Positions 18,986 through 54,058 of a stretch of DNA of 64,000 nucleotides are shown here, piece after piece. The translations under genes were made by a program, and so were the position numbers. Source of the stretch: Candidatus Omnitrophota bacterium. GTDB lineage: Bacteria > Omnitrophota > JACPQZ01. The stretch covers positions 4,632-68,631 of the forward strand of contig JACPQZ010000076.1 in NCBI GenBank assembly GCA_016190205.1. The letters are read 5' to 3'. The notes beneath the pieces were generated by a model, which ran no database searches, was not told the DNA's origin, and saw nothing but the letters and a program-made list of their open reading frames with translations. Each line of letters starts with the position of its first letter. The first letter of the stretch is position 1.

Positions 18986-20284
18986 TTAATTCCTCACGAG
19001 ACCCCAATTTATTTCAAGCAGATTGAGAATCGAATCGCGCAGGATACTGAGCCCGGAGTCATTGAGATGAACGGCGTCCGTATAGAGCGTTTCCCGGTGA
19101 TCCCTGAAAACACCCGCCAGACCATAAACCGGGATTTTCTCTTCTATCCTGAGCAACTCCATCGAGTTGGCAACAATTAAATATCCCAGCGCGCGCTCCC
19201 GCGTAATGGTGCCCACCGTCTTCATCTCCTCTTCTGACAAGTCCTTTCCTATGGCCGGGACGGGCTGAAGCGCAAAGAGAGTTTTAACATTCAGGCGGGT
19301 TCCGATGGCGTGCATCATCCGAATATATTTTTTGTACATATCGAAGTCGAGCAACACCCCTTCATCAGGTTCCATTCCCCCCGGGGGCGCAAAGAAAAGA
19401 GTTGTTTTTTTACGCAAGGATTTCGTTCCTCCCGCCTCGCCGCGCGCGTAGATACCGCGGGCCCATCGACGCACTCCGTTGGTTACAAGGTATGAGAGCC
19501 TGGAGTGTCGGAACAGCCACACCTCCCTCTGAAAGCGCAGGAGGGCGCCGTCCAGCCGGAGCGGCCACATGGACTTTAGCCCGCCTCCCTCCTTTTCTAT
19601 GGCGGCAAAATAGTGGTCTGGCGGCTGTTCGAAACCGTAGCCCAGGGACTTCGAGATCCCATTCATATTGGTCATTTCGTTGACACCATCGAGGGTGATA
19701 ACCCCGTCCAGAAGGTGGGCATAGAGCGCAAAGAGAATAAACTGCTGTGGCTGGTGCCAGGCAGGACCCCCCCCATTCAAAACGATGAATCGCTTGATTC
19801 CCTCACTCTTGTAGTGCTGGTTTAGCGCTTCTTCGAGGATGTTTTTCTCAGGGACGAGGCCGGCCAGTTGTGCAGCGACAGAACCTCCCGTGAGCAGGAT
19901 GACAAATGTCCCCTCTTCCTTTCTTTCAGGCCAGTCCCGTCCGGCCATGCCCCGCTCATTGACACGCATGCGATCACCCGTTAGCTCCGGATCATGAACG
20001 AAGGAAAGGTAGGGATGGGGCATGATCAAATCAGCATGAGTCAAACCCTTGGGGACCACGTCCTCCATAAAACTGTTTCTTTGTGCAAGCATTTTGTCTG
20101 GGACGGACACAAAAAAACCGTCTGTTTTGCGGTAATAGATTAGGCAGGCTAACTCCAACAGGATAAGCGTTGCAAGGATGGAACAAATAACTAGTTCAAG
20201 TCGGACAAGGAGCCGTTTCACAATTTCGTCAGTTCGCAACCGACTGCCCGGTCCGTTCCTTCGGTTCATAAAATACAAACTCAA
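18986..20284 (-). CDS. Membrane-anchored SGNH/GDSL-hydrolase-like protein (hypothetical)
   Basis: Has an N-terminal transmembrane helix, a GGS block (FVILLTGGSVAA) and a C-terminal DAVHLN (DxxH) motif typical of the SGNH fold. Confidence 0.45.
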   Translation of the reverse strand: MSLYFMNRRNGPGSRLRTDEIVKRLLVRLELVICSILATLILLELACLIYYRKTDGFFVSVPDKMLAQRNSFMEDVVPKGLTHADLIMPHPYLSFVHDPELTGDRMRVNERGMAGRDWPERKEEGTFVILLTGGSVAAQLAGLVPEKNILEEALNQHYKSEGIKRFIVLNGGGPAWHQPQQFILFALYAHLLDGVITLDGVNEMTNMNGISKSLGYGFEQPPDHYFAAIEKEGGGLKSMWPLRLDGALLRFQREVWLFRHSRLSYLVTNGVRRWARGIYARGEAGGTKSLRKKTTLFFAPPGGMEPDEGVLLDFDMYKKYIRMMHAIGTRLNVKTLFALQPVPAIGKDLSEEEMKTVGTITRERALGYLIVANSMELLRIEEKIPVYGLAGVFRDHRETLYTDAVHLNDSGLSILRDSILNLLEINWGLVRN

Positions 20285-21248
20285 AAAACACCCTCATCTC
20301 CTGCCATGACTTTTGATCGGCATCCGCGTGATAGGCCACGCCCTTGGCTGGATCGTCCCCCGCTTCGGGCACGGTGAAGCTATGCACAGCCCCGGGGAAG
20401 ATGATCAACCGGTAGTCCACATCCCCCTTTTGCATCTCCTCCTCGAAGGTCCTTCTTTCCTCGGCGGAAATATGGGGATCATCTGCCCCTGTTAGGACAA
20501 GCACCTTTCCTTTTATGTTTTGAGCATCCTCCGGGTGCGGCGTCGAAAGCCCTCCGTGAAAGCTCACCACCCCCTTCAAATCCTCCCCCGCCCGGGCCAA
20601 TTCAAGTACCGCCATGCCTCCGAAACAATACCCGATGGCCCCCAACCGGGAGCTGTCCGTCAGAGGGTGCCCCTTCAATACGTCCAGGCCTGCCGCAGCC
20701 CGGGCCCGCATGAGATTTCGCTCCTGCCGGAAAACTCCGGAGAGCTGAGCCGCCTCTTCATGCGTCTGGGCGTAGACGCCCTTGCCATACATGTCTACCG
20801 CAAACGCGATGTACCCGAGTTCCGCAAGCTCGCGGGCACGTCTTTTTGCATACTCATTAAGCCCTTTCCACTCATGCACCACAAGCACGCCCGGCCGTTT
20901 ACCTTGCAAAGCGTCGTCATAGGCAAGATAGCCTTCCAGTTCCACATCCCCGTGCGTGTAGGGAACAGCCTCTGTGCGTATGGCCGCCTGCCCCGTCCCA
21001 GGGTAAAATAGAAAGAATGCGAAACACAAACACGCAATTTCCACGAGCTTCCTGCGCCCGCGCTCGTTTCTTAGGATTCTCACGCCGGATTTTTTCACGC
21101 CAAAATGCCCCGCCAGAAGTTCTATGACCGCCTGATTGGCCCGGCCGTCCTCGGCCGGCGCAGTCACGTACACCTTGAGCCCTCCCTCCATGGGCACCAC
21201 CCGGTTGTGCCGGGCCCTCGGCACCACCCTAATTTCTACACGCTGCAT
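20229..21248 (-). CDS. DUF167 (YggU) domain fused in frame to a signal-peptide-bearing dienelactone hydrolase
   Basis: Residues 1-71 form a complete DUF167 domain ending in GRRKLVEI. A hydrophobic segment (IACLCFAFFLFYPGTGQAA) follows, and then a dienelactone hydrolase domain with the GYCFGG nucleophile. Confidence 0.7.
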   Translation of the reverse strand: MQRVEIRVVPRARHNRVVPMEGGLKVYVTAPAEDGRANQAVIELLAGHFGVKKSGVRILRNERGRRKLVEIACLCFAFFLFYPGTGQAAIRTEAVPYTHGDVELEGYLAYDDALQGKRPGVLVVHEWKGLNEYAKRRARELAELGYIAFAVDMYGKGVYAQTHEEAAQLSGVFRQERNLMRARAAAGLDVLKGHPLTDSSRLGAIGYCFGGMAVLELARAGEDLKGVVSFHGGLSTPHPEDAQNIKGKVLVLTGADDPHISAEERRTFEEEMQKGDVDYRLIIFPGAVHSFTVPEAGDDPAKGVAYHADADQKSWQEMRVFFEFVFYEPKERTGQSVAN

Positions 21249-23040: not shown

Positions 23041-23373
23041 TTAGCGGTCTCGGCGGGCGGCATAGGTGAGATGTGAAAAGTAGCGCCGCCAGGCCTCCTC
23101 CGTGGAACCATACTCGTTGGCTCCGAGGAAGTCATCGGCCAGGGCCTCCCTCATACGGGCAAGCTCTTTAAGACGGGGGGCTTCCCAGCCGCCTTCCAGG
23201 GTCAAGTCCACGAGCTCGAGGGCCCTTTCGAGTGCCCTCAGACTGTAGGCGGCGTTTTGCTTAGCCCGCCAGTTGAGCGCCCGCTCGACCTCACTTCCGA
23301 TGTTCGCCATCTGTTCGAGAAACGATAATCGGTACCAGCGCCCTGCTGCAAGGGATTTGTGCTGAACACTCAC
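23041..23373 (-). CDS. Hypothetical small protein with a C-terminal Rx4H (HEPN-like) motif
   Basis: 110 aa with a C-terminal EEAWRRYFSHLTY segment (R-x4-H...Y). It overlaps the upstream gene by 4 nt. Confidence 0.4.
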   Translation of the reverse strand: MSVQHKSLAAGRWYRLSFLEQMANIGSEVERALNWRAKQNAAYSLRALERALELVDLTLEGGWEAPRLKELARMREALADDFLGANEYGSTEEAWRRYFSHLTYAARRDR

Positions 23374-23711
23374 CGGGTGATCCTCTTTCCGACGATTGCC
23401 ATGATCTTTTTGCGGGTAGCCTCGCTCTCCACGCCGCGGCTCCTGTTACCCTGCGACGGGCGCATGTTGATCATGGAATCGAACTCCACCCATTCGTCCG
23501 CCTTCGCCGCCGGATAGAAGTTGATGCCCCAGAGACCCCGCTGCTTCGAACCATTCTCCAGGAGGAGTGCTTCGAGATCCGCGTGCAGCTCGGCATCCAG
23601 CGCGATGAGCTCCCGCTCCACATCCACGACCGCCTTGACCATATCCCCGAAGCCCCGGGCGGCTATTTCGTTAACCTCGTTCAGCGTGATCGCGTCCGTA
23701 ATAATCTTCAT
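23370..23711 (-). CDS. Hypothetical small protein, translationally coupled partner of 23041..23373
   Basis: 113-aa ORF whose stop overlaps the start of the downstream gene by 4 bp (ATGA), the usual toxin-antitoxin layout. Confidence 0.4.
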   Translation of the reverse strand: MKIITDAITLNEVNEIAARGFGDMVKAVVDVERELIALDAELHADLEALLLENGSKQRGLWGINFYPAAKADEWVEFDSMINMRPSQGNRSRGVESEATRKKIMAIVGKRITR

Positions 23712-23792
23712 GAGAAATATTTACTGATCACCTCACGATATCCGTGTGCTCACGCCAGCGTACTTCAATGCCTTCGCGGGCTTCGATCACGA

Positions 23793-24281
23793 TCAATTTT
23801 GGTCTTTAATCTTCTCTTGAATCCTGCGCCTGGCGCGCTTATTAAACTCGGAAAAGGCCATGTCCATCTGCCGGTCTGAGATGACCACCCAACGTACCTT
23901 CCGGCTCCCGGCATAACGTTCAAACTCGCTCAACGTTTGGGCATCGGTCGGATTGACAGTCGCAGCCGTTAATGACCACTCATCCTGAAAGAGGGGTAAG
24001 CATCTCTTTTCAACCGCCAGCGTCGGATTCACCTTCTGGACCACATCCCAGTCTATTTGATCGAAAACTAAATTGAGATACGGGAGCTCGAATTTTTCCG
24101 ATAGTGCCTGGGCCAAATCGCTGTCTGAAATGATACTTCTCTTGAGGAGAATTTGACCTAAAAACTCGTGGGTTCTTTGCTGCTCCGCCAGCGCCGAAAT
24201 AAGCTGGATTTCATTGATCAATCCCCGATCACGCAGAATTTCCCCGATCTGCTTTTTATTTTTCTTTTGTTCAACAGTCAT
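23793..24281 (-). CDS. Standalone MshEN (T2SSE_N) domain protein, putative c-di-GMP receptor
   Basis: The N-terminus KQIGEILRDRGLINEIQLISALAEQQ fits the 24-residue MshEN motif RLGxxLLxxGLIxxxQLxxALxxQ. A second degenerate copy follows (FLGQILLKRSIISDSDLAQALSEK). Confidence 0.6.
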   Translation of the reverse strand: MTVEQKKNKKQIGEILRDRGLINEIQLISALAEQQRTHEFLGQILLKRSIISDSDLAQALSEKFELPYLNLVFDQIDWDVVQKVNPTLAVEKRCLPLFQDEWSLTAATVNPTDAQTLSEFERYAGSRKVRWVVISDRQMDMAFSEFNKRARRRIQEKIKDQN

Positions 24282-24412
24282 GGGGGGTCCTTTCGGGAGA
24301 CTTTATTATCTATTTTATTGCTTCATCAACTTTTCATTCGGTACCATCATTCGGTACCAGGTACCGGATAGGGTTTAAACTGGGTTTCACTGTCGTGCCA
24401 GGCACCGAAACT

Positions 24413-24943
24413 TCATCCAATATCCAACAGGTTCTTATAGCGCTTTAGAAATTGGCGGTCCTTGGGCCGACCGGCAATCTCTTTTGAGCGCAAAAGTTTT
24501 TCCAACCGACCCACCTTCACAGGTATCTGGTCTACCGTAAAAGTTGCTGCATCCTTGGCTAAATCCGAGAAGGGATAGCCTGACACCTTGAGCAATAATT
24601 CAATCATGACGCCATCCGGGGTGGTTGCTACAAGAGTGCGCTGCTCTTTGACGAGCCGCGCGAGACTGGCTGCCTCTAACTTTCCCTGCGCTGTGCCAAG
24701 GGAAAAACCCAGCGCCTCAAGATTTACAACCGCCTTTTTTACATTCGCCAGAGTGGGATCCAGAAATATATCATAATCCATCGTTGCAAACATTTCGGAA
24801 GGATTACGGGCGTAGTAATTAATGCCGGACATTCCCACCACCACATAACGCACGCCCTTGCGATTAAATTCATCCACCACCCTCTGGTACGGGTCTCCCC
24901 CCTCAATCTTATTTACCATACGGTCACGAACGCTTCTTGCCAT
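24413..24943 (-). CDS. Pol-beta-superfamily nucleotidyltransferase-fold protein (AbiEii/DUF6036-like toxin candidate)
   Basis: Carries the G-[GS]...D-x-D motif (VVGMSGINYYARNPSEMFATMDYDIF) and a C-terminal GRPKD segment. It overlaps the upstream HTH gene by about 20 nt. A paralog lies at 32024..32485. Confidence 0.5.
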   Translation of the reverse strand: MARSVRDRMVNKIEGGDPYQRVVDEFNRKGVRYVVVGMSGINYYARNPSEMFATMDYDIFLDPTLANVKKAVVNLEALGFSLGTAQGKLEAASLARLVKEQRTLVATTPDGVMIELLLKVSGYPFSDLAKDAATFTVDQIPVKVGRLEKLLRSKEIAGRPKDRQFLKRYKNLLDIG

Positions 24944-25268
24944 AGTGACGCTGCCATGCGAGCAAGGTCCTGTGAACCCAGGTCTTCTCCGCCCCGTCCG
25001 GGCTATCCAGATCCCGTGCGCGGACCCTGCCTAACAGCTCGGGTTGCTTAGAGAGGGAGCCTGCCTCAGCGGGCACGTTCTCTAACAAGTCGGAAGGACT
25101 TACTCCCAGAAAGGCGGCGAGTTTGGCCAAGGCGTGGAGCGAAACTGACCGCTTGCCCGAGTCCATCGCTGAGACGTTCGAACGGTAGAGCCCCAGGCTC
25201 CTGGCCACCTGTGAAGCGGTCCAGCCTCTTTCCCGGGCCACCTGCGTAATACGGGTTCGGATTGGCAT
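24924..25268 (-). CDS. XRE-family helix-turn-helix transcriptional regulator (antitoxin candidate)
   Basis: HTH segment ITQVARERGWTASQVARSLGLYRSNVSAMDSGKRSVSLHALAKLAAFLG. The probable start is the internal ATG at 25268. Confidence 0.65.
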   Translation of the reverse strand: MPIRTRITQVARERGWTASQVARSLGLYRSNVSAMDSGKRSVSLHALAKLAAFLGVSPSDLLENVPAEAGSLSKQPELLGRVRARDLDSPDGAEKTWVHRTLLAWQRHYGKKRS

Positions 25269-25302
25269 CTCTGTAATGTTATCATATACTGATAACAAAA
25301 GC

Positions 25303-25461
25303 AACTCATCTTATTTCACCTCATTCGGAGAAATGAGGACGGTCTTGCCGTTTTTCCATATCGCCAGCGGCCGGCCTGTTTTCTTATGCCGCTTAACCAC
25401 CTCCCGAACCGCTTTTTTCAGAGCCGCTTCAGCTTTATCCTGCAAAGACATTCTTTTTTTC
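25303..25461 (-). CDS. Small ORF (51 aa) immediately downstream of the zeta-toxin gene; possible partner protein
   Basis: Minus-strand ATG at 25461 gives MKKRMSLQDKAEAALKKAVREVVKRHKKTGRPLAIWKNGKTVLISPNEVK. It starts 3 nt after the zeta stop. It is not in the ORF track because it is under 60 aa. Confidence 0.3.
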
Positions 25462-25463
25462 AT

Positions 25464-26042
25464 TTACCGTCTCGCACTTCTTTGAACCATCGCAAATAAA
25501 TCATCGTTCATTATTTCTCTGTGACCGTTTCGTTTTTTCGCGATCAATACCGGCTTCGACTTGGAATTATCAAACAACATCCAGGAATCGAGCAATGGCT
25601 CATACAGGTTGGAAAAATTATCGAGGCCGCGAGTGAATCTTCTGCGCACGTCTTCCGCAGGCACATGATGGCCGCCTTCCGCCACCCGGTCTTTAATACG
25701 TGCGATCGCCAGTTCCGCGCTCGGAATCCAGAGAAAGAAAAGATGAACCGTATAGCCTTTCTTTTTTAGATCAGTGAGTAGAGTTGCGTAGGATTTACCG
25801 GATAAAGTCGTCTCAAATGCAAAAACAACGCCGCGCCTGGCGTATTCATGGATCTCATGAAGAACGAGCTTACCGGCTTTGATCGCCGCGGCGCGAGGCC
25901 CAAAGGGGGCCAGTCCTTGAGCGATGAGGTCTGCATTTACAAAATTCGGGCAATTCACATAATCCGGTAAGAACAGCCTCGCAAAGGTCGTCTTACCCGA
26001 TCCATTGGGTCCCGCAATAATGTAAACCGCTTTATGCTTCAT
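25464..26042 (-). CDS. Zeta-toxin family P-loop kinase (AAA-like)
   Basis: Walker A motif IIAGPNGSGKTT and zeta-toxin family architecture in 192 aa. Confidence 0.75.
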   Translation of the reverse strand: MKHKAVYIIAGPNGSGKTTFARLFLPDYVNCPNFVNADLIAQGLAPFGPRAAAIKAGKLVLHEIHEYARRGVVFAFETTLSGKSYATLLTDLKKKGYTVHLFFLWIPSAELAIARIKDRVAEGGHHVPAEDVRRRFTRGLDNFSNLYEPLLDSWMLFDNSKSKPVLIAKKRNGHREIMNDDLFAMVQRSARR

Positions 26043-26077
26043 AGTCGGCCTGTTCAGCCTTAGTGAACGGAGTCATG

Positions 26078-26107
26078 TCTTGCAAAATAATATGTGATAT
26101 TGCAAGA
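26078..26107. promoter_or_regulatory. Perfect 8-bp inverted repeat (TCTTGCAA-N14-TTGCAAGA) in the zeta-toxin promoter region; putative operator
   Basis: The sequence tcttgcaaaataatatgtgatattgcaaga lies 36 bp upstream of the zeta-toxin start codon. Confidence 0.45.
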
Positions 26108-26116
26108 CCTGACCCT

Positions 26117-26878
26117 TCACGCGAACTCACGTTTCCTGAAATGGATTCCCGTATTGTCCGTAGGCCTCAACTCGTGTTTGATCCCCCGCCTGAGCATAAA
26201 CTCATCCACCGCTTTCTTACAGCCCTTCCAATAGCAGTAATCGTCGATCACCACGTAGCCATCTGGAACCACTTGATCGTAGAGTTCCTCCAGACAAATT
26301 TTAATTGATTCATAGTAATCGCCGTCCAAGTGGAGCAATGCAATGTCACCCATTGCTTTCTTATGCGAGGGGATAGTTTCATGAAACCAACCCTTGACGA
26401 AATGACCACGGCCCGCCGGAAACCTCAATGTTTTGTATAAAAGGCCTTTGGCGATCGTTTCCGGAGCGGATAATGCCCCTTTAGGAAACGTTTCGCCACT
26501 GGCTGTTTCATCCAACGCAGAAGCGTCCGGTAAGCCCTGCCATGAGTCGAAAAGCCACACGTGCCTTTTCGGATGCCGGTTGGCGACGGTATGAAGGACG
26601 GCGGCGCTCCCACCCCGGCACACGCCAAACTCCGCGAAACACCCTTTGACCCGGTCCCGGTTTAATATGGTTCCCAGCTCGAACAGCGTCAACAGTCGCG
26701 GGTACGTCAACATCGTATACGGTTTGATCTTCAAAAAAAGGTTGATCTTGCCCAGTTTCCAAAGATCTTTCTTTGGAACGCCCCGGATAAAATGCCACTC
26801 TGAATTCAGACGCGTCAGGAGCAGGTTTCTCTTCACCCATGCCTTGATAGGTTTAACCATCTGGGTGCGGACATTCAT
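26117..26878 (-). CDS. TylF/MycF-family SAM-dependent O-methyltransferase
   Basis: Contains CFAEFGVCRGGSA, LHLDGDYYESI and DGYVVIDDY, motifs of the macrocin-O-methyltransferase family. Confidence 0.7.
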   Translation of the reverse strand: MNVRTQMVKPIKAWVKRNLLLTRLNSEWHFIRGVPKKDLWKLGKINLFLKIKPYTMLTYPRLLTLFELGTILNRDRVKGCFAEFGVCRGGSAAVLHTVANRHPKRHVWLFDSWQGLPDASALDETASGETFPKGALSAPETIAKGLLYKTLRFPAGRGHFVKGWFHETIPSHKKAMGDIALLHLDGDYYESIKICLEELYDQVVPDGYVVIDDYCYWKGCKKAVDEFMLRRGIKHELRPTDNTGIHFRKREFA

Positions 26879-27004
26879 AACTCATCTTTCGGTACCAGGT
26901 ACAAAAGTGCCACTTATATACTGATAACAAAAGCAACTCATCGCGATTTGGCGCCGCAGTCCGTACAATGACATCGAACCTGGTACCTATAGGTAAAAGT
27001 CATC

Positions 27005-27703
27005 TCAAGCCATATCAAACAATAGTAATTCCGCGTCACTAAGGGCGGCGATCGTTAAAAGCTTTTCCCCGCTGACTGCGGCGCCGTCGCTCTCCTTAAA
27101 CGAGACTCCATTGACTTGAACCGAGCCGCGGGCCGCCTGTATCCAGGCGTGACGGTACATGTCTATGGCATATTCCACCTTTTTGCCTTTTTCGAGGGAT
27201 GAGATATAGAGACTGGCATCCTGATGGATTTTTAGGGCGCCTGCGGACGGCCGGCCGGCCGCGGCAAGGCACAACCGGTTTTTTCGCAGCTCGGGCTTGA
27301 AAGCACGCTGCTCATAACCAGGCTTGAGCCCATTTTTCTCCGGCAAGATCCAAATTTGCAGTAAATGCACGGGGTTCGTCCGGGACGGGTTGAACTCACT
27401 GTGAGTCACGCCCGTTCCGGCACTCATGCGCTGTACTTCCCCGGGCCGGATGACTGCACCGCTCCCCATACTGTCCCTGTGTTCCAGCTCGCCTTCCAGG
27501 ATATAGGTTATGATCTCCATATCTCTGTGCCCGTGCGTGCCAAAACCCTTTCCGGGCTCAATCCGATCCTCATTGATGACCCGAAGGCACCTAAAACCCA
27601 TATGCTTGGGGTCATGATAATCAGCAAATGAGAAGGTGTGATAGGAATCCAGCCAACCGTGATTGGCATGACCCCGCTCACCGGCTTTTCTGATTTGAAT
27701 CAT
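27005..27703 (-). CDS. Pirin family protein
   Basis: Pirin N-terminal cupin motifs HGWLDSYHTFSF, GFGTHGHRDMEIITYILEG and THSEFN. Confidence 0.85.
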   Translation of the reverse strand: MIQIRKAGERGHANHGWLDSYHTFSFADYHDPKHMGFRCLRVINEDRIEPGKGFGTHGHRDMEIITYILEGELEHRDSMGSGAVIRPGEVQRMSAGTGVTHSEFNPSRTNPVHLLQIWILPEKNGLKPGYEQRAFKPELRKNRLCLAAAGRPSAGALKIHQDASLYISSLEKGKKVEYAIDMYRHAWIQAARGSVQVNGVSFKESDGAAVSGEKLLTIAALSDAELLLFDMA

Positions 27704-27752
27704 CGTTCATGCCTTTGAATATGCCGTTTTTACGGGCCGCTTTGCTTTCCAC

Positions 27753-28319
27753 TCATCGTAACCGCGTGAACGAAAACACGGCATCCGTATCCTTGGCCCC
27801 CTCCTTGTAACAATTCCAGGACTGGTTCATCTGACCACCCCCATCGGCCAGTGAGATCTCGAGACCATGCATGTGCTGCTCGTGGGCTACATCGATATCC
27901 GTGTCGGCGGCCAGTTGAAATTTCCAGTTTGTACCGGACGATTCGTTCAGCACCATGCGCGGCTGGTTGCCCAACATGCAGTAATGGGTCATTTCAAGCC
28001 TGCCCGCGCGGTCGTGATAGACACTTACCATCTCGCTTGGCGTCCCTACGCAAAATCGCTCCAGAAGAACAGAGCCTCCCGACGTAAGTTCATAGCGGAC
28101 CTTTACTTTTTCCTCTTTGCCGTCCTTGACAGATGTTCCTTCCCACTCGCCCACGAGCCCCTTCAGGCGCTCAAACTCTGCTGAGGAAGGAGGACGCGGC
28201 GGCATTTCCTCTTCCGCAGCCTTCGAAATAGCGCCCGAAAGCAAGGCGCTCAGAAATGATACAAGAATGATACGCGCAAACACGTTAACCTCCTTTACAT
28301 GCAGGTAACACTGTTTCAA
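27753..28319 (-). CDS. Secreted DUF1579-like protein
   Basis: Has a signal peptide and the segment GEWEGTSVKDGKEEKVKVRYELTSGGSVLLERF, consistent with DUF1579. Confidence 0.45.
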   Translation of the reverse strand: MKQCYLHVKEVNVFARIILVSFLSALLSGAISKAAEEEMPPRPPSSAEFERLKGLVGEWEGTSVKDGKEEKVKVRYELTSGGSVLLERFCVGTPSEMVSVYHDRAGRLEMTHYCMLGNQPRMVLNESSGTNWKFQLAADTDIDVAHEQHMHGLEISLADGGGQMNQSWNCYKEGAKDTDAVFSFTRLR

Positions 28320-28384
28320 GCCATGTTAAACAATAAAAACTCTCTAACCTTCATACTGAGTGCCTATTGTTTCACTTTATGAGC

Positions 28385-28496
28385 TCTGCATTTACAAAAT
28401 TCGGGCAATTCACATAATCCGGTAAGAACAGTCTCGCAAAGGTCGTCTTACCCGATCCATTTGTCCCGCGATGATGTAAACCGCTTTGTGCTTCAT
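28385..28496 (-). pseudogene. Truncated, frameshifted duplicate of the 5-prime end of the zeta-toxin gene
   Basis: About 130 bp at 28385-28515 are about 95% identical to 25930-26060, which is the upstream region plus the first ~37 codons of the zeta gene. The copy has a 1-nt deletion and substitutions and no continuation. Confidence 0.65.
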
Positions 28497-28549
28497 AGTC
28501 GGCCTGTGCAGCCCTGGCGAACGCTAGGATATAACACCGCCATGCGGGC

Positions 28550-28585
28550 GGGGTCGACGGGCGCCATACGCGCTTTCGCGCTACT
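28550..28585. repeat. 36-nt direct repeat, copy 1 (GGGGTCGACGGGCGCCATACGCGCTTTCGCGCTACT); its first 12 nt equal the tRNA-Asp 3-prime end
   Basis: 34/36 identity with copy 2 at 29672..29707. The two copies flank the yjbQ-tag segment. Confidence 0.85.
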
Positions 28586-28606
28586 TACCAGGTGCAAAAG
28601 TGCCAC

Positions 28607-29020
28607 TTAATTTCCCATCACCTTGACCACGACGCGTTTTTTGCGCTTGCCGTCAAATTCGGCGTAAAAAATCTGCTCCCAGGGGCCTAGATCCAGCTTC
28701 CCCCCGGTAACAGGCAGGACCGCCTGATGGTGAACCAAGGTGCGTTTGAGATGGGCGTCGCCGTTGTCCTCTCCCGTGAGGTGGTGGCGGTAGTCCTCGC
28801 GGAAAGGCGCGAGCCGCTCTAAAAGCTCCCATAAATCCTCCCACAGCCCTTCCTCGTTATCGTTCACCCAAATCCCGGCAGTAATGTGCATGGCCGAGAC
28901 CAGGCACATTCCTTCCTGGACGCCGCTTTTTTTGACGATCCCCTCGAGCTTGTCCGTGATATTGACCAGATCCCTGCGCTTGGGGGTGTTAAACCAAAGG
29001 TATTCGGTGAGGGTGGTCAT
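28607..29020 (-). CDS. yjbQ: YjbQ/UPF0047 family protein (secondary thiamine-phosphate synthase-like)
   Basis: Reads [50 protein letters not shown]..., typical of UPF0047. Confidence 0.7.
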
Positions 29021-29022
29021 GA

Positions 29023-29616
29023 TTATGGGTGCTGCACTTCGCGGTGTCTGAAACAACTGACAAGGTGATCGTTCACCATGCCTGTCGCCTGCATGTGGGC
29101 ATAGCAGATGGTGGATCCTACGAACCGGAAGCCTTTCTCCTTAAGGGCATGGCTCAAGGCGTCGGACTCTGACGTTCGCGCGGGCAAGTCTTTTAGAGAC
29201 CTGCGCTTGTTCTGGATGGGCTTGCCGTCCACAAACCGCCATATAAAGGAAGAGAAACTCCTTTCCTCTTTTTGAATCTTGAGAAAAGCCCGAGCGTTTG
29301 TGATCGCCGCTTCGATCTTGAGACGGTTACGGATGATGCCAGTATTTTGAAGCAACCGGCTCACGTCACGCCTGCCATAGCGGGCTATTTTCTCGGCGTC
29401 GAACCCATGGAAAGCCTTGCGGTAATTTTCCCGCTTTTTAAGCACCGTGAGCCAGCTTAAACCCGCCTGTGCCCCTTCGAGCACTAAAAATTCAAACAAC
29501 TTGCCGTCGTCATACAAAGGCACTCCCCATTCCCGGTCGTGGTAAGCTCGCATGAGGGGATCGGATTCAGCCCATTCACAGCGGTGGTTGGCAGACATGT
29601 ATCGAAATGAAGCCAA
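29023..29616 (-). CDS. tag: DNA-3-methyladenine glycosylase I
   Basis: Contains [45 protein letters not shown], a close match to Tag. Confidence 0.85.
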
Positions 29617-29671
29617 TTATCCTTACCAGGTACAAGAGTGCCACGTCGAATTGACGACGGGAAATAATTAC

Positions 29672-29707
29672 GGGGTCGACGGGCGCCATACGCGCCTTTG
29701 CGCTACT
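29672..29707. repeat. 36-nt direct repeat, copy 2 (GGGGTCGACGGGCGCCATACGCGCCTTTGCGCTACT)
   Basis: See copy 1 at 28550..28585. Confidence 0.85.
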
Positions 29708-29757
29708 GGCACTTCCCTGGCGTGCCAGGCACCGAAGGCCGAAGAGAAGAAAAGAAA

Positions 29758-29979
29758 TTAAGCTGCCTTCAACCCCTGCAACGTTCTTTTCCGAAATCCT
29801 ATGATGGTCAACCCTACCACTTCTTTTTTCTTTTGGTCGTAACGGACGATGACACCCTCTCCGATATCCACACCTACTGCGGGACGTGGTTTGCCGACGG
29901 AAATATAAAGGACATCGGCTTCCTCGTCGTATTCCCAATTCAATGAGCGTTTTCCCTCAAGAATTCTCAGCGCTTCCAT
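29758..29979 (-). CDS. DUF2283 family small protein (antitoxin-like)
   Basis: 73 aa with YDEEADVLYISV and VVGLTII segments, the DUF2283 pattern. It overlaps the upstream gene. Confidence 0.55.
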   Translation of the reverse strand: MEALRILEGKRSLNWEYDEEADVLYISVGKPRPAVGVDIGEGVIVRYDQKKKEVVGLTIIGFRKRTLQGLKAA

Positions 29980-30278
29980 ATTACCTCCCTCCTCTTCGAA
30001 AAGGAGCCCGCAAAATATGCTGTTAGAACAAATCCTTCTTGTCCGCCAGCCTCTTTGTAGGCAACCACCAAGTGCTTTTGCGTAAGGGGCGTTTTTGAAT
30101 AGAATCGCACGGCCAGCAACTCGCCGAAATCACCTTCCTGGATTAAATCAGGGTCTGAAATGGTTTCCACGACCCTATCCCTCTGACCCTCCATTTCCGG
30201 ATGGCGCCTCAGAATGTGCTCCCACCGCTCGCGCGTTAAGCGGATTGGGATCCCTTTCTTAGAATGAATAATAATCAT
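29967..30278 (-). CDS. Small protein paired with DUF2283 (DUF4258-like toxin candidate)
   Basis: 103-aa ORF overlapping the DUF2283 gene by 13 nt. It has the genomic arrangement typical of DUF4258/DUF2283 pairs. The family assignment is tentative. Confidence 0.4.
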   Translation of the reverse strand: MIIIHSKKGIPIRLTRERWEHILRRHPEMEGQRDRVVETISDPDLIQEGDFGELLAVRFYSKTPLTQKHLVVAYKEAGGQEGFVLTAYFAGSFSKRREVIWKR

Positions 30279-30430
30279 CTATCTAACTGAACCGGTTTAT
30301 TTCATCCACTTCCCAATGCGCGTATTTCGTATGCGCTCCAAGTGTCCCTGGCGTACCAGGCACCGACAATTTAATTTTCAGTTTTAGTGCCAGTTAAAAT
30401 GGAATTGTCGTGCGCTCCTGGCTCCAGAGT

Positions 30431-31258
30431 TTAAACTCCGGGGTTGTTATCAGTGCTTGGTACCGTGTTGCCGGGTACTGTATTTTTCCTTTCCGAAGAC
30501 CGGCGGTAAGGTTTTAATTCCTCATCACTTTGGTAATCTCTAATGATTTCGCGAACCCGTTGGCTTATTGAAGAGGAATCAGTTATAACTGGACCACGAG
30601 CGATTAACTTCCGCTCTTCTGAGAATGTGTTTCCGCTTTTATCTTTATAACAAACCGAAATAATTAGAAAAGGCGGCCTCTCAGGCTCAAATATACTCCC
30701 TTTCTCGGAAATTGGAATCTCACGTTCTTCTTCAGGAGCTATTATATAGTGGAATTTTGGTTGGCGCCCTTTCTTATAAATTTGGGAAATATGCTCACCA
30801 TCAACAATGTATGGGCGAGGAGCACTAAGATCAAAATATTCATGTACCCCTGTGATAGGATTAACAATCACGACCTCGGAATCTAACGCCTCGCCGGTAC
30901 CGATATTTTTTAGAGTTACTTTTCCAACGCCGTTTTCAATATCGACAATTTCATAGCGGCTTACAACTAATCGAGGCTCATATGAATCAGCGCGCTTGGA
31001 TGCAGTCACAACGAGGAGAATCGTAGAAATAAGTAAAGAGAGCAGTGCTGTTAACGTTGCTGGTTGCACATTTCCAAACCTGTCTCTCTCCCAGGAGAAA
31101 AAAATTATTATGCACGCAATCAGATAAATCCAGATCCAAGTTTTGATAGGAAGAGTATTCACAATAAGTGACGGTAGGAAAAAATAACCTGAAATGAAAA
31201 ATGGCAATGGTAGGAGTAATGATGCAACTAAGTGCCGCAATAAGGTCATTATTCCCAT
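30431..31258 (-). CDS. Hypothetical membrane protein in an AT-rich (foreign-looking) segment
   Basis: 275-aa ORF with N-terminal transmembrane helices. Local GC is visibly lower than its surroundings. Tandem GTTAACACA repeats lie in its upstream region. Confidence 0.45.
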   Translation of the reverse strand: MGIMTLLRHLVASLLLPLPFFISGYFFLPSLIVNTLPIKTWIWIYLIACIIIFFSWERDRFGNVQPATLTALLSLLISTILLVVTASKRADSYEPRLVVSRYEIVDIENGVGKVTLKNIGTGEALDSEVVIVNPITGVHEYFDLSAPRPYIVDGEHISQIYKKGRQPKFHYIIAPEEEREIPISEKGSIFEPERPPFLIISVCYKDKSGNTFSEERKLIARGPVITDSSSISQRVREIIRDYQSDEELKPYRRSSERKNTVPGNTVPSTDNNPGV

Positions 31259-31711
31259 ACCGACATTCTTGATAGGTGCGCTATTGTTAACACAATGTTA
31301 ACACAGGTCTATTTTATATAAGCAGGGAGTTATGGCTTAATCATCATTACCACTTCTGTATATTTAAAGTATGCATAACGGAGTCGACGGGATTTGGCGG
31401 TTTGGGCTCGCCACTTAGTCGATTACTCCTTCGGTTATCGGTGTTCGGTGCTCGGTTATCGCAAGAAAAAGAAATATTATGAGCCTTCAGCCGTCGGCTA
31501 TCTGCCTTGGGCTTTTGCTGATGGCTGATGGCTGATAGCCAACAGAGTTTGCGAGCACCGATAACCGATCCACGATCACCGAATCAAATGCTCGCCCAAA
31601 CTCGGCCACTCGCCGCGCCAAGGAAGGCGGTGCTCCCATATAGGTCGCACCGCATGTGTTGGGGGGCGCGGCTCACTTCAAATCCCGTCGACCTTTTGAC
31701 GGAAAAGAAGA

Positions 31712-31787
31712 CGGGGTCGACGGGATTTGAACCCGCGGTCTCCTGATCGACAGTCAGGCGCTTTAAGCCGGACTAAGCTACGACCCC
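31712..31787 (-). tRNA. tRNA-Asp (anticodon GTC)
   Basis: Reverse complement reads GGGGTCGTAGCTTAGTCCGGCTTAAAGCGCCTGACTGTCGATCAGGAGACCGCGGGTTCAAATCCCGTCGACCCCG. It folds as a cloverleaf with anticodon loop CTGTCGA. Confidence 0.85.
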
Positions 31788-31920
31788 TTTAAAACCGTGA
31801 CTCGTCGCTCGTGAATCGTGGTTTTAGCAAGAAACACGCTTGTCGTGAGTGAAGCGTGATGTGTGGTGAAACCGTCACTTCACTCACCCCTCACCACACA
31901 TGACAATCTTTACTCGCCAA

Positions 31921-31994
31921 GAGTAGTCATTGGGCGAAACAGGACTCGAACCTGTAACCCCTCGGATGTAAACCGAGTGCTCTGACCGATTGAG
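31921..31994 (-). tRNA. tRNA-Val (anticodon TAC)
   Basis: Reverse complement reads GGGCGAATAGCTCAATCGGTCAGAGCACTCGGTTTACATCCGAGGGGTTACAGGTTCGAGTCCTGTTTCGCCCA. Confidence 0.85.
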
Positions 31995-32023
31995 CTATTC
32001 GCCCGAAAGCGTATATGATGTAG

Positions 32024-32485
32024 TCACGAATAACCTGATTTTCTTTTCTTCACGATTCGCGCCAGATCCAGTTTGTCCTGCGGGCGTCCGCTTGCCTTTT
32101 TAGACAGTATGAGCTCATCGAGGCCCATGATGTTGATGGCGATTTTCCCATACCGGCTATGTCTCCGGTGTTTCCATGCCTCAATTGCAGAGACCCCCGG
32201 CACCTTAATCAAAATGTCCACTCTTACCGGCGCAATACCTATTTGAAGTATTACGGATTGATCCTGAAAATCACCCGGGCGCACCCCTTTCAGAGGAGCA
32301 CCATAGAACTTCAGGGCCTTGTAGACGCTGCGTGGATCGTTCAGTTCTGCCGGGATCCAGATGTCCAGATCTTTCGTAAATCGGGGCTCGGAATAAAATA
32401 TAACGGCGTGAGCGCCGATAACAAGATACTTGATCTTATGCGCGTTTAAGGCGCTGAACAGATCTTCGTAATCGGAGCTCGGCAA
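32024..32485 (-). CDS. Pol-beta-superfamily nucleotidyltransferase-fold protein, paralog of 24413..24943
   Basis: Contains YLVIGAHAVIFYSEPRFTKDLDIWI (G...D-x-D motif) and a C-terminal SGRPQDKLDL segment. It has the same architecture as the first nucleotidyltransferase gene. Confidence 0.5.
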   Translation of the reverse strand: MPSSDYEDLFSALNAHKIKYLVIGAHAVIFYSEPRFTKDLDIWIPAELNDPRSVYKALKFYGAPLKGVRPGDFQDQSVILQIGIAPVRVDILIKVPGVSAIEAWKHRRHSRYGKIAINIMGLDELILSKKASGRPQDKLDLARIVKKRKSGYS

Positions 32486-32633
32486 CTGGCTTCCCCCGCA
32501 TCTTCAGAAACGTACTGACCATAGCCCAAGCGGCTTCAAAACGCGCCGCCGCACCCGCACGCCGCCAAAACCACCGGTCAAACGCATCGGCTTCTTTAAA
32601 AGATTTCGACTTGTGAATCCATGTCTTGCTCAT
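32436..32633 (-). CDS. Small ORF overlapping the 5-prime end of the second nucleotidyltransferase gene (possible antitoxin partner)
   Basis: 65-aa ORF with a 50-nt overlap onto the downstream nucleotidyltransferase gene. No recognisable domain. Confidence 0.25.
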   Translation of the reverse strand: MSKTWIHKSKSFKEADAFDRWFWRRAGAAARFEAAWAMVSTFLKMRGKPVAELRLRRSVQRLKRA

Positions 32634-32803: not shown

Positions 32804-32959
32804 AGTAATCAGAACCAAATCCGGCCTCGTGAAGCGTCGATCGTGAAGACTATCTCACAACCCTGTAATAGAACCTCGCGCCGCTGCCCCTCGTAGCCGC
32901 ATCTTCCTGATACGAGATACGCTTCACGAGATACGAGATACGAAAATGTGGACAGCGTG

Positions 32960-35334: not shown

Positions 35335-35428
35335 GTAGTTATCACCTCTCTAAAGATGGCAATCGTGAGGGCAGATGGATTCGGCGGTTTGGCAGAGAAT
35401 CCATCTGCCCAATACATGTAAAGAACTC

Positions 35429-35502
35429 TGAGGGCAGATGGATTCGAACCATCGACACCCGCCTTAAAAGGGCGGTGCTCTACCAGACTGAGCTATGCCC
35501 CC
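35429..35502 (-). tRNA. tRNA-Lys (anticodon TTT)
   Basis: Reverse complement reads GGGGGCATAGCTCAGTCTGGTAGAGCACCGCCCTTTTAAGGCGGGTGTCGATGGTTCGAATCCATCTGCCCTCA. The 5-prime end abuts the frr stop codon. Confidence 0.85.
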
Positions 35503-47754: not shown

Positions 47755-48036
47755 GCTACTTCCTTTCCTTTTTTATTGCCTTGCGAAGCCGCCACCGCGA
47801 ACCTTAACCCTGTGGATCACCTTGGAGAAACTCACATCCGGGGCAAAACGGAGGAATTTCCAGAATTTCTGCAACACGTAATGTTAACACAGGTTACGGC
47901 AACAAGTCAACTTAAAAATTCCTGACACAAGTGGCGCGAAGGTTGCCTATGAACCTGTTACACAATAAGTTACACAAACGAACCGCCCGCATGTGAAGGT
48001 CCCCCTCTCGCGGGGCGCTCTTGAGTCCCAGATAAG

Positions 48037-51711: not shown

Positions 51712-53028
51712 TTAGGCATCCACCAGGCTGAACATGAGTCTCGCCTCCGCCACCACCTTATTCCCGACCTTGGCCACACCCTCGGTCAGCGTGGTGCGAG
51801 ACTTAATCTTCAAGACGTTCACTTCCAGGATAAGCTCATCCCCCGGGAGTACCGTCCTCCTGAACTTCGCCCGCTCGATGCTCATGAAATACGCAATCTT
51901 CTTTAAGTTCTCCTGGCGCGAGAGCATGAGGATCCCGCTCACCTGCGCCAAGGCCTCTACGATCAAGACGCCCGGCATGACCGGATGGCCCGGAAAATGG
52001 CCGCCGAAATAGGCTTCGTCCGCTAGCACATGCTTGACCCCAACTGCCCGCTTGTTGGGAATAAACTCAACCACCTCGTCGACAAAGAGAAAAGGTTGGC
52101 GATGAGGAATAATGCGCTCGATCTCTGTCTGTCCCATCACTGTTCCTTCAGAGAGAGGTTCCTGTACCACACTGGCGACCCCGGCGGCGCCGTCGCGCAC
52201 GGCCTGCCGTTTGATTCGCTGGATGAGCGCAATATTGAGAGAGTGTCCGCTCCTCACGGCGATGACATGACCCTTTAGATGCATCCCCAGGAGATACAAA
52301 TCCCCGATGAGATCCAGGATTTTATGCCGCACAAATTCATCCTGAAAGCGCAGCTCGTTGCGGATCACCCCCTCCGGGCCCACCACCAGGGTATTGTCGA
52401 AATCAGCCCCCTTCCCTAGGCCCTTTTCCCTTAAAAGCTGTCCTTCCGACTCCGTGCAGAACGTGCGGGCGGGCGCGATCTGGTTCACGAAGACGTCGTC
52501 CTTCAAGGTAAAGCTCGCGAATTGCGATTTCATTTCGGGGTGATCGAACATATAGCTCACCTTGAACGCATCATGCGGCAGAACGACAATGCTGGCATCT
52601 TGTTCCTGGATGTAAATCGGCTCTCGAACGGCGTAGACCTTGCGAGGCGCCTCCTGCTCCTGGTAACCGGCCTTGGCAAGCACCTGGGTAAATCCGAGCG
52701 CGCTTCCGTCCAGCCCGGGGAGTTCCTCCCCGTCTATCTCAATGATGATATTGTCAATCCGCAGTCCCACCAGGCACGCCATGAGATGCTCGATGGTGTG
52801 CACCTCATAGGAGTTCACGCCCACGGAAGAGCGGCGCGGCCTCTTATTGAGGTCGATCACATGGTAGATTTCGGCGGGGATGGAAGGTTTTTCAGGAAGG
52901 TCAGACCGGACGAAACGAACGCCCGACTGCGGGGGGGCTGGCTTGAAAACGCAGTTGACCGTCTTGCCTGTGTGCAGGCCGACCCCGGAGAGCCTAGCCG
53001 GCTTTTTTATTGTCCGCTGAGACTCCAC
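51712..53028 (-). CDS. lpxC: Bifunctional UDP-3-O-acyl-GlcNAc deacetylase / 3-hydroxyacyl-ACP dehydratase (LpxC-FabZ fusion)
   Basis: N-terminal LpxC ([19 protein letters not shown]...) and C-terminal FabZ ([11 protein letters not shown]...[20 protein letters not shown]). The likely start is GTG 53028, since the ORF track start at 53166 would overlap lpxD by 170 nt. Confidence 0.85.
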
Positions 53029-54058
53029 CGAGCTTTCTCTCCAGACGTGCCACCTTGTCTTCCAAGGTGGAAAAAGACTTGAACATCTCGGGAAGCTTGG
53101 CCATGCAGGCGAAGATCCTCTTGGCCCGGTTAAAGGGCTTGGCCGGCTGGCCAAGGACACAGGCATTGTCGGGAACGGATTTGGTCACCCCGCTCTGTGC
53201 TGCGATGGTGACATTATCTCCGATGGTGATATGCCCCACGATGCCCGCCTGACCCGCCATCACCACGCCGTTTCCGACCGTAGTGCTCCCGCTGATACCG
53301 CACTGCGCGACGATGATGGAGTGCTCTCCAATCGTCACGTTATGCGCGATTTGAACCAGATTGTCAATCTTCGTCCCCCTCCCGATAAAGGTGGTGCCGA
53401 AACGGGCGCGATCAATCGTCACGTTGGAACCGATCTCCACGTCGTCGGAGAGAACCACGTTGCCGATTTGGGGGATCTTGTGATGCACGCCCTTGACCGT
53501 AGCAAAACCGAATCCGTCGCTCCCGATCACAGAGCCGGAATGAATGATGACGCGCGCCCCGATCTCGACATATTCCCGGATCGAGACGTTCGGATAAATC
53601 ACCGTTGCCTTACCGATCTTGGTGTGGTGGCCCACGTACACCCCCGCATACAGGATGACGTCATCGGCAATCTCGGCATAGTCATCCACTACCACGTAGG
53701 GCTGCATGGCTACGTTCTTCCCCAGCTTGACATGCTGGCCCAGAACTGCCGTCGAATGAATGCCCTTAGGCGTCACGGTCTCATTGGGAGCCAAGAGCGT
53801 GACGATGCGCGCAAAGGCAAGTGATGGATTTTCCGCGCGGATCAGGGAATGGTTGGGGATCGGCTCGAGATCTTCAGAAACAATGATGGCGGAGGCCTGC
53901 GTCGTATCGGCCAGGGGGACGTATTTGGGATTGGCCAGGAACGTGATATCCCCTTCCGAGGCTTCTTTAATACCGCTCACGCCCGTAATCACCGTATTGG
54001 GATCGCCGTCCACGCGGCCCCCGACGATTCGGGCGAGCTCCGAGAGGGTCTTTTTCAC
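52994..54058 (-). CDS. lpxD: UDP-3-O-acylglucosamine N-acyltransferase
   Basis: LpxD-like N-terminus ([42 protein letters not shown]) and hexapeptide repeats. Confidence 0.9.

Follow-up and report, generated by a model that had tools for sequence, protein, structure and literature searches.

The tandem ssrA islands of Dehalococcoides are the closest documented case to the locus described here. In these islands, several 20-bp repeats of the 3′ end of the gene each have a conserved motif upstream, insertion is placed in the T-loop, and some of the islands lack integration genes and are regarded as cis-mobilizable (PMC3146451). Cis-mobilizable elements (CIMEs) and accretion together constitute an established decay route for islands of this type (PMC5704250). 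Here, we analyzed a 64-kb stretch of DNA (the window) that forms part of a 116,166-bp contig of a Candidatus Omnitrophica metagenome-assembled genome (MAG; locus tags HYY14_). Between a beta-helix gene and a tRNA-Asp/Val/Glu cluster, this window holds 17 small minus-strand genes and one pseudogene fragment. On balance, we favor an accretion islet, decayed and without an integrase, at the 3′ end of tRNA-Asp as the explanation for the part of this region from ~23.75 to 31.71 kb.

The locus resembles the Dehalococcoides islands in that small tandem islands appear to lie downstream of a tRNA or transfer-messenger RNA gene, whose 3′ end recurs as short direct repeats with a conserved non-gene motif upstream, and insertion apparently occurred at the T-loop. 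It differs in that many Dehalococcoides islands keep a serine-recombinase integration module and have 20-bp repeats, whereas here no recombinase was found, the repeats measure 13 to 19 nt, and the segments are about 1 to 2 kb long. Comparative genomes exist for Dehalococcoides, while none was found for this organism. Similar to the CIMEs of the ICESt1 type in streptococci (PMC5704250), the islet would have grown by new insertions into an att site beside the 3′ end of a tRNA gene; CIMEs, however, are defined by their known relation to an integrative and conjugative or an integrative and mobilizable element and by demonstrated cis mobilization, whereas the islet is known from sequence alone. If our reading is correct, Omnitrophota, which are mostly tiny uncultured cells, build and erode tRNA-linked islands as better-known bacteria do, and at this locus the succession of insertions would remain legible, in compact form, from nested direct repeats.

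A block of foreign composition abuts tRNA-Asp

The region is set within core genome. To its right lie tRNA-Lys, frr, pyrH, tsf, rpsB, an msbA-like gene, lipid A genes, bamA, dnaB, and ribosomal protein genes, and to its left lie the beta-helix protein gene, a DUF167-hydrolase fusion, a zinc ABC transporter, and glycogen/trehalose genes. The core genes have a GC content at third codon positions (GC3) of 0.70 ± 0.05. From the MshEN gene (23793) to a 65-aa gene (32633), 14 of the 15 genes display low and heterogeneous GC3 values (z, −1.5 to −7.2), the sole host-like member being YjbQ. An earlier reading of the same DNA (the original prediction) had pointed to an AT-rich segment at 30.4 to 31.4 kb, and the 275-aa gene located there does fall far below the core genes (Table 1). 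Values also shift between the segments that are delimited by the tRNA-end copies described below, with GC3 of 0.36 to 0.56 in the first, 0.63 to 0.71 in the second, and 0.51 to 0.68 in the third. Because the leftmost pair of genes (DUF5674 and a 110-aa protein) has host-like GC3, the atypical block begins near 23.75 kb, and this pair probably lies outside the acquired block. The foreign-composition block, about 8 kb long, is thus found at ~23.75 to 31.71 kb, with a separate 0.6-kb nucleotidyltransferase pair located between two tRNAs.

The island starts at 31711 and directly abuts the 3′ end of tRNA-Asp, which is the arrangement that characterizes tRNA islands. Repeats resembling att sites are present, and integration or transfer genes were not found among the large open reading frames (ORFs) of the window. 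All of the ORFs named in the original prediction are present at their places on the minus strand. Their shared orientation had been taken as a trait of the island, but 54 of the 59 gene-sized ORFs of the window lie on the minus strand, and co-orientation is therefore not an island property. GC skew is negative throughout.

Table 1. Features of the islet and its immediate surroundings, by position in the window
Feature	Position	Strand	Basis
DUF5674 and 110-aa four-helix-bundle protein, host-like composition	23041..23711	-	Pfam, AlphaFold, GC3
Stand-alone MshEN-domain protein	23793..24281	-	Pfam; last gene with atypical composition, GC3 z -2.8
P3 (from nucleotidyltransferase stop codon) and W-like GGTACCTGGTACC region; leftmost junction repeats	24328..24413	-	Direct repeats D3, D11, D13
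XRE-type helix-turn-helix (HTH) and pol-beta-type nucleotidyltransferase, overlapping ORFs, toxin-antitoxin-like pair	24413..25304	-	Pfam
D7b, 27-nt perfect direct repeat of 26916-26942, right after 50-aa gene stop codon	25284..25310	-	Direct repeat D7
Zeta-like kinase (192 aa) and 50-aa partner	25311..26042	-	Zeta_toxin PF06414, E 1.2e-11, above gathering score
Strong hairpin between TylF and zeta-like gene	26071..26114	-	DNA fold z -5.2; 0/200 shuffles as good
TylF-type O-methyltransferase	26117..26878	-	Pfam PF05711, E 4e-39
D7a (27 nt) and W3, directly upstream of TylF	26893..26942	-	Direct repeats D7, D4
176/188-aa secreted or lipoprotein-like protein without known family, then pirin	27005..28319	-	Pfam; covered by Logan contig L001
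Zeta-like pseudogene: first ~119 nt of gene and 27 nt upstream, 1-nt frameshift, truncated; beside X3	28379..28523	-	Direct repeats D1/D2
37-nt repeat copy b, 95% identical to copy a, contains X3 (13 nt)	28549..28585	-	Direct repeat search
W2 junction repeat, from first base after YjbQ stop codon	28586..28609	-	Direct repeat D4
Tag (3-methyladenine DNA glycosylase I) and YjbQ/UPF0047; bracketed by W1/W2 and both 37-nt repeats	28607..29616	-	Pfam and repeats
W1 junction repeat GTGGCACTCTTGTACCTGGTA, 7 nt upstream of Tag ORF	29624..29647	-	Direct repeat D4
37-nt repeat copy a: 24-nt arm AGTAGCGCAAAGGCGCGTATGGCG, then X2 (13 nt)	29671..29707	-	Direct repeat search
P2 junction repeat, 17 nt past DUF2283 stop codon	29711..29740	-	Direct repeat D3
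Toxin-antitoxin-like pair: 103-aa protein (weakly BECR/RelE-like nuclease fold) and DUF2283 (73 aa), bracketed by P1/P2	29758..30278	-	Pfam
P1, palindrome-containing junction repeat TCGGTGCCTGGTACGCCAGGGA, 59 nt past 275-aa gene	30342..30371	-	Direct repeat D3
AT-rich gene, 275-aa predicted membrane protein	30431..31258	-	GC 0.41, GC3 0.355, z -7.2
X1, direct tRNA-Asp 3′-end copy, 18/19 nt	31378..31396	-	tRNA-derived part C56 of T-loop to discriminator base
Non-coding stretch, 280 nt, long imperfect hairpin closed by inverted and direct tRNA-end copies, ends in CCAAACCGC	31397..31676	-	RNA fold -141 kcal/mol, z -5.1
Inverted tRNA-Asp copy, 17 nt perfect: T-loop, T-stem, acceptor 3′ strand	31677..31693	.	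Starts 18 nt past tRNA end
tRNA-Asp (GTC), islet anchor, 3′ end faces island	31712..31787	-	ARAGORN; Rfam tRNA model 70.8 bits
Second nucleotidyltransferase (153 aa) and 65-aa upstream partner, between tRNA-Glu and tRNA-Val	32024..32633	-	GC3 atypical

Copies of the tRNA-Asp 3′ end lie within the islet

The original prediction had noticed that two repeat copies contain the 3′ sequence of tRNA-Asp, and our searches extended this to three direct copies (X1, X2, and X3) and one inverted copy. All of these copies are located within 3.2 kb downstream of the gene, and they occur nowhere else in the 64 kb; none of them marks the left limit of the island near 23.75 kb. X2 (29671-29683) and X3 (28549-28561) each match, at 13 of 13 nt, the 3′ strand of the T-stem, the 3′ strand of the acceptor stem, and the discriminator base. 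Every direct copy is preceded by conserved non-tRNA sequence: for X2 and X3, which share it, this is the 24-nt arm of the 37-nt repeat, which is not tRNA-like, and for X1 it is CCAAACCGC. When the 13-mer CGGGGTCGACGGG was used as a search motif, we recovered four copies on the plus strand at one mismatch or less, and five matches when both strands were counted, where chance would give 0.25. A candidate fourth copy at ~26950-26966 was degenerate, matching at only 13 of 17 nt, and was not counted. The 280-nt stretch that separates X1 from the inverted copy has no Rfam family match; the Rfam search of the region found only tRNAs.

The same design as that at tRNA-Asp also occurs at tRNA-Lys (35429-35502; whole structure, 35366-35502). 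There, 18 nt separate the gene from an inverted copy (14 nt) of its own 3′ end; a 13-nt body whose end is CCAAACCGC comes next, and then a direct copy of 18 nt that runs from C56 to the discriminator base, so that this copy and X1 are both preceded by CCAAACCGC. At tRNA-Asp (31378-31787) the corresponding elements are 18 nt, a 17-nt inverted copy, a 280-nt body in place of the 13 nt, and a direct copy that likewise begins at C56. The elements at tRNA-Lys together make up a 14-bp hairpin (z, −4.7), and the design is missing from all 18 of the other tRNAs examined in 2 Mb of other loci. Either a trailer hairpin or the footprint of insertion via a folded hairpin that mimics the end of a tRNA gene could explain it. 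A by-product of this analysis is an architecture, repeated downstream of two tRNA genes, in which the tRNA's own 3′ end is copied twice, once inverted and once directly.

Direct repeats bracket one- to three-gene blocks

Beyond the tRNA-end copies, the spacers of the islet share two families of junction repeats, P (TCGGTGCCTGGYACGCCAGGGA; 30342, 29711, and 24384) and W (GTGGCACTYTTGYACCTGGTA; 29624, 28586, and 26893). P lies 0 to 59 nt after stop codons, and W lies 7 to 14 nt before start codons or on the 5′ side of a block. Followed from tRNA-Asp along the gene strand, the order is the hairpin region and X1; the 275-aa gene and P1; the nuclease-like gene, DUF2283, P2, a 37-nt repeat (with X2), and W1; Tag, YjbQ, W2, and the second 37-nt repeat (with X3); the zeta-like pseudogene, the 176-aa gene, pirin, D7a, and W3; TylF, its hairpin, the zeta-like gene, the 50-aa gene, and D7b; the HTH gene, the nucleotidyltransferase gene, P3, and the W-like region; and finally the MshEN gene. 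The result is a series of one- to three-gene blocks bracketed by repeats of 13 to 146 nt, all of which are direct and none inverted. Some of these brackets are nested, with lengths of 27 nt (100% identical), 37 nt (95%), and 146 nt (89 to 98%). The 27-nt pair, D7a and D7b, encloses W3, TylF, the zeta-like gene, and the 50-aa gene (1,632 bp), and P1 and P2 are 631 bp apart. The 146-nt duplication joins 28379-28523 with 25924-26069, in which D1 is 98% and D2 89% identical with an offset of 1 nt.

The shared repeat families reported in the original prediction are real and exceed chance, as island spacers align with one another at z scores of 6 to 19, and “cassette-like” is an apt description of the block anatomy. 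Across 1,494 bp of spacer, TGGYAC occurs 12 times compared to 1.1 expected, a 10-fold enrichment. Elsewhere in the window, P and W were absent; 2 Mb of other loci produced one chance match and the contigs of the same organism, and no junction motif was found in viral contigs. The hairpin that follows TylF is likely a terminator or an operator.

Control spacers were unlike the island spacers with one exception, a 15-mer common to the 31259-31400 spacer and the spacer upstream of glnA. This 15-mer (ACCTGTGTTAACATT; with the palindrome TGTTAACA inside it) is found without mismatch at 31292-31306 and 47878-47892, upstream of the 275-aa gene and of glnA, respectively, and the 275-aa gene has a second, partial copy beside the first. 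It may be an operator common to both genes, in which case a foreign gene may have been wired into host regulation.

An accretion model for the islet

One suggestion of the original prediction was a tRNA-targeted island built by serial insertions, and this is the part that we favor. It draws on the three direct tRNA-end copies, the arms that precede them, the composition of the segments, the nested repeats, and the truncated, frameshifted gene copy; since no close relative was found, this support for accessory status is intrinsic to the locus only. Under such a scheme, small circular DNAs would have integrated by Campbell-type recombination, some of them site-specifically at the T-loop or T-stem boundary of tRNA-Asp, and each site-specific insertion would have moved the earlier tRNA 3′ end to a greater distance from the gene. 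Serial insertion would account for X1, X2, and X3, each preceded by a conserved arm derived from the element. By the logic applied to Dehalococcoides, the crossover would have fallen between T55 and C56 for X1 and at the boundary of T-loop and T-stem for X2 and X3.

Later insertions may have proceeded via the junction repeats (P, the 37-nt repeat, W, and D7) or via plain homology, such as that provided by 146 nt of the zeta-like gene. In the latter case, a single crossover with a partial copy would have left one intact and one truncated zeta-like gene. The 27-, 37-, and 146-nt direct repeats are too long to be target duplications made by a transposase, and their length fits insertion of circles by Campbell-type recombination. 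The recombinase genes would have been lost, or would always have acted in trans, and the blocks would now be fixed or only cis-mobilizable. As cargo, we would recognize selfish addiction-type pairs (zeta-like kinase and 50-aa protein, HTH protein and nucleotidyltransferase, BECR-like nuclease and DUF2283) together with putative small stress or repair enzymes (Tag, YjbQ, pirin, the TylF-type methyltransferase, and MshEN).

Several observations weigh against accretion. A search of the large ORFs of the 64-kb window gave no integrase, pseudo-integrase, or transposase, in line with the original prediction, and no integrase remnant was recognized, with the spacers not searched by six-frame translation; an integrase past the window edges would stand more than 20 kb of housekeeping genes away from the island. 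At 1.1 to 1.7 kb, the segments between tRNA-end copies fall short of the size of any autonomous integrative element. A single event may underlie both X2 and X3, because each is a match of only 13 nt within one 37-nt repeat. Apart from W, the flanks downstream of the X copies show no significant likeness to one another.

Nor was an empty site seen, as no close relative was found in any collection. In scans of genome contigs and metagenomes, the best match to the ribosome recycling factor (Frr) was 56% identical, and no syntenic flanks were present among the homologues of the flank proteins, which are 53 to 68% identical (68% and 58% for the beta-helix protein and at most 53% for a 670-aa flank protein). 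The assembly itself is a further point. Contigs of the same organism are present in the Logan assembly of SRR12113385, where L001, an independent assembly of window positions 28383 to 25947 (99.96% identity), and L162, which covers 25464 to 11288, are both at least 99.95% identical to the window. These independent contigs end on both sides of the zeta-like gene, and the join across 25465-25946 is therefore supported by the MAG assembly alone. A chimeric join at this highly conserved gene is possible. We regard the islet as a decayed genomic island of a rather ordinary sort, distinguished by an unusual collection of junction repeats.

Regulatory repeats, recombinases in trans, and integrons

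A different explanation is that the region is native and variable but not mobile. The spacer repeats would then be regulatory or terminator sequences of co-regulated stress genes, for example, operators of the island's XRE-type HTH protein, and the 13-mers would be parts of a tRNA-trailer hairpin that were duplicated locally. Local duplication of tRNA-trailer sequence has a parallel in the 178-bp repeats of Escherichia coli tyrT. The placement of P after stop codons and of W near start codons or on the 5′ side of blocks would suit this explanation, as would the dyad-symmetric GTRCC-T-GGYAC cores of both families, which are typical of dimeric DNA-binding proteins. In addition, tRNA-Lys, which has no adjoining island, forms the same hairpin with its own 3′ end, the AT-rich gene and glnA share a 15-nt upstream motif that suggests host regulation, and no recombinase was found among the large ORFs. 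What a native region leaves unexplained, however, is the heterogeneity of GC3, the truncated zeta-like copy, the 27-nt and 146-nt bracketing duplications, and the confinement of the motifs to 6 kb. Also against it, in a hand check of W/TGGCAC, the GG-to-GC spacing was 7 nt and not the 10 nt of sigma-54 promoters, and only one of the three W copies appeared in a sigma-70-type scan. We consider a native origin unlikely, if worth keeping in view.

Alternatively, P, the tRNA-end core, and W could together form the site of a recombinase encoded elsewhere, such that one- to three-gene blocks are excised and re-inserted by a working cassette system in trans, a tRNA-anchored analogue of integron cassettes or of Acinetobacter pdif modules. 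We know of no recombinase for a system of this kind, which counts against it. The motifs are also missing from viral contigs and, one chance match aside, from the 2 Mb of other loci; W precedes the 37-nt repeat at one junction and follows it at another; and the dyad of P has a 1-nt center, which would seem ill-suited to the core sites of known tyrosine or serine recombinases. What speaks for a cassette system is that at least five junctions have the same order (P after the preceding block, a core resembling the tRNA end, and W before the next block) and that the bracketing repeats are all direct. The blocks, moreover, are sized like cassettes or dif modules, and several of them are toxin-antitoxin-like, as in pdif modules (PMC6449649, PMC13141974). 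The Acinetobacter modules are likewise made up of one or two genes, often a toxin-antitoxin pair, with short flanking sites, and they are shuffled between contexts by a recombinase that is encoded elsewhere (PMC6449649, PMC13141974). In contrast to the islet, they carry 28-bp XerC/XerD sites in alternating orientation and reside on plasmids, whereas the repeats here are direct, unrelated to dif, and chromosomal. A cassette system served in trans is, in our judgment, quite unlikely.

A bolder version of this idea deserves equally little credence. It would make the junction of P, the tRNA-Asp 3′-end core with its arm, and W the site of a new gene-cassette system of Omnitrophota, with the recombinase elsewhere, and would make the structures at tRNA-Asp and tRNA-Lys the footprints of insertion of folded single-strand hairpins in the manner of CTX phage or attC.

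[quoted passage not shown] The short co-oriented genes, the repeated junctions, the spacers of ~50 to 290 nt, and the lack of a nearby integrase are all reminiscent of integron cassettes, and CALINs are common (PMC4889954). Membership in this class requires attC sites (PMC4889954), yet the island contains no RYYYAAC...GTTRRRY (R″/R′) core pair on either strand and no IntI was found. Folding of seven spacers (one on both strands, giving eight sequences) revealed no attC-like hairpins: six folded no better than shuffled sequences (z, −2.1 to +0.2), and the seventh formed the simple hairpin after TylF, which was better than every shuffle (z, −5.2). Furthermore, the repeats are direct repeats that share primary sequence and not structure-conserved palindromes, the anchor is a tRNA gene as opposed to attI, and the co-orientation is window-wide. 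The integron comparison does not survive these tests, and the probability that the region is a CALIN appears close to negligible.

A widely travelling kinase module

Among the presumed cargo of the accretion islet, the zeta-like kinase and its small downstream partner stand out for their distribution. The two genes had been recognized in the original prediction, and both are borne out: the Zeta_toxin/AAA_33 protein is encoded at 25464-26042, and the 50-aa gene at 25311-25463 is real and conserved. The kinase has thousands of homologues, which are 78 to 88% identical among the matches listed and come from many Omnitrophota MAGs as well as from MAGs labelled Elusimicrobia and Rikenellaceae (Bacteroidota). 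Between the MAGs of these phyla, the proteins of the two-gene pair share 79 to 88% identity. In contrast, flank proteins of the same genome find nothing above 53 to 68% identity. The 50-aa gene begins 3 nt after the kinase in every context examined, 39 of its 50 residues are invariant, and the protein weakly resembles Phd/YefM (E, 0.012). One identical kinase protein occurs in at least three neighborhoods, once beside an integrase. At the DNA level, similarity to the window copy is 75 to 80% and extends from at or within 9 nt of the start codon to within 3 nt of the stop codon.

These comparisons indicate that the zeta-like kinase and the 50-aa gene are a promiscuous, widely travelling two-gene unit, and they plausibly form a toxin-antitoxin pair with the antitoxin second. 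Like Zeta/PezT systems, the unit joins a 192-aa Zeta_toxin/AAA_33 P-loop kinase to one small gene in every case, and it is found in many contexts. It differs in that the partner is downstream, 50 aa long, and weakly Phd/YefM-like, and in that the kinase, at ~190 aa, is shorter than classical zeta or PezT. We did not find an epsilon/PezA antitoxin gene upstream of the kinase, where the TylF methyltransferase gene is located. A SAM-dependent methyltransferase adjoins the pair in several contexts, with Methyltransf_25 downstream elsewhere (loci L166 to L178) and TylF upstream here. As a second by-product, then, the analysis points to a very widespread and highly conserved two-gene module that appears to move between phyla without conserved flanks.

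Other gene content and the question of defense

The remaining family labels fared unevenly. Pfam matches agree with MshEN (E, 1e-14), TylF, pirin, YjbQ (UPF0047; E, 4e-38), and Tag glycosylase (E, 1e-83). The label DUF1579 for the 176/188-aa protein had to be abandoned, as this protein has no Pfam match even at an E value of 10. In the pair described as DUF2283/DUF4258, the first half stood, whereas the 103-aa protein matches not DUF4258 but, weakly, the related PBECR2 nuclease family (E, 0.005). Two pairs of HTH protein and pol-beta nucleotidyltransferase had been proposed; the HTH protein of the first pair (24924-25304) and both nucleotidyltransferases (24413-24943 and 32024-32485) have Pfam support, but the 65-aa partner in the second pair has no detectable HTH. 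The two nucleotidyltransferases are distant relatives (24% mutual identity; E, 2e-10), and their matches to DUF2204/DUF6036 are weak. No family match was found for the 275-aa protein in Pfam, NCBIfam, or PADLOC. When the whole islet was compared by blastn to plasmids and phages, the sole match was the conserved pirin gene.

Toxin-antitoxin-like pairs are plausible for three or four of the modules. Such pairs can act as abortive-infection modules, and the HTH protein resembles control proteins and CapH-type regulators, which would suit an anti-phage defense island whose kinase, methyltransferase, nucleotidyltransferases, and nuclease-like proteins work jointly; the original prediction had suggested an uncharacterized defense or stress island. 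A search with PADLOC-DB v2, however, returned no system or system component, only generic HTH and weak P-loop matches, and Tag, YjbQ, and pirin belong among the common stress or repair enzymes. Because each block has its own history and composition, the blocks do not make up one defense system. We find an anti-phage defense island very unlikely.

The nucleotidyltransferase pair between tRNA-Glu and tRNA-Val looks like a separate small insertion because its GC3 is atypical. It ends 19 nt before tRNA-Val, much like an independent small insertion within the tRNA cluster, and no repeat was found to flank it.

At the opposite end of the region, the 110-aa protein (23041-23373) had been described as HEPN-like. 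We found no HEPN match, and the histidine of the Rx4-6H motif is not conserved in 51 homologues. The protein has no sequence match in Pfam or the PDB, and AlphaFold predicts (pLDDT, 94) a plain bundle of four helices, for which the only matches are generic bundles (best E, 0.3). It belongs to a large uncharacterized family (1,091 cluster representatives at E < 1e-3) with invariant W13, R31, L54, and E70 and without a fold relative beyond generic bundles.

Two further observations concern the surroundings of the islet. The spacers upstream of tRNA-Asp (31788-31930, between tRNA-Val and tRNA-Asp) and of tRNA-Glu (32804-32959) share inverted repeats of the CGTGAAGCG/CGCTTCACG type as well as short units in tandem, for instance CGTATCT (spacer-to-spacer z, 4.3), which may be promoter or processing elements of the tRNAs. 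The core flanks hold three fused genes: LpxC-FabZ (51712-53166; 484 aa), DUF167-dienelactone hydrolase (20229-21248; 339 aa), and TreS-maltokinase (324-3710; 1,128 aa).

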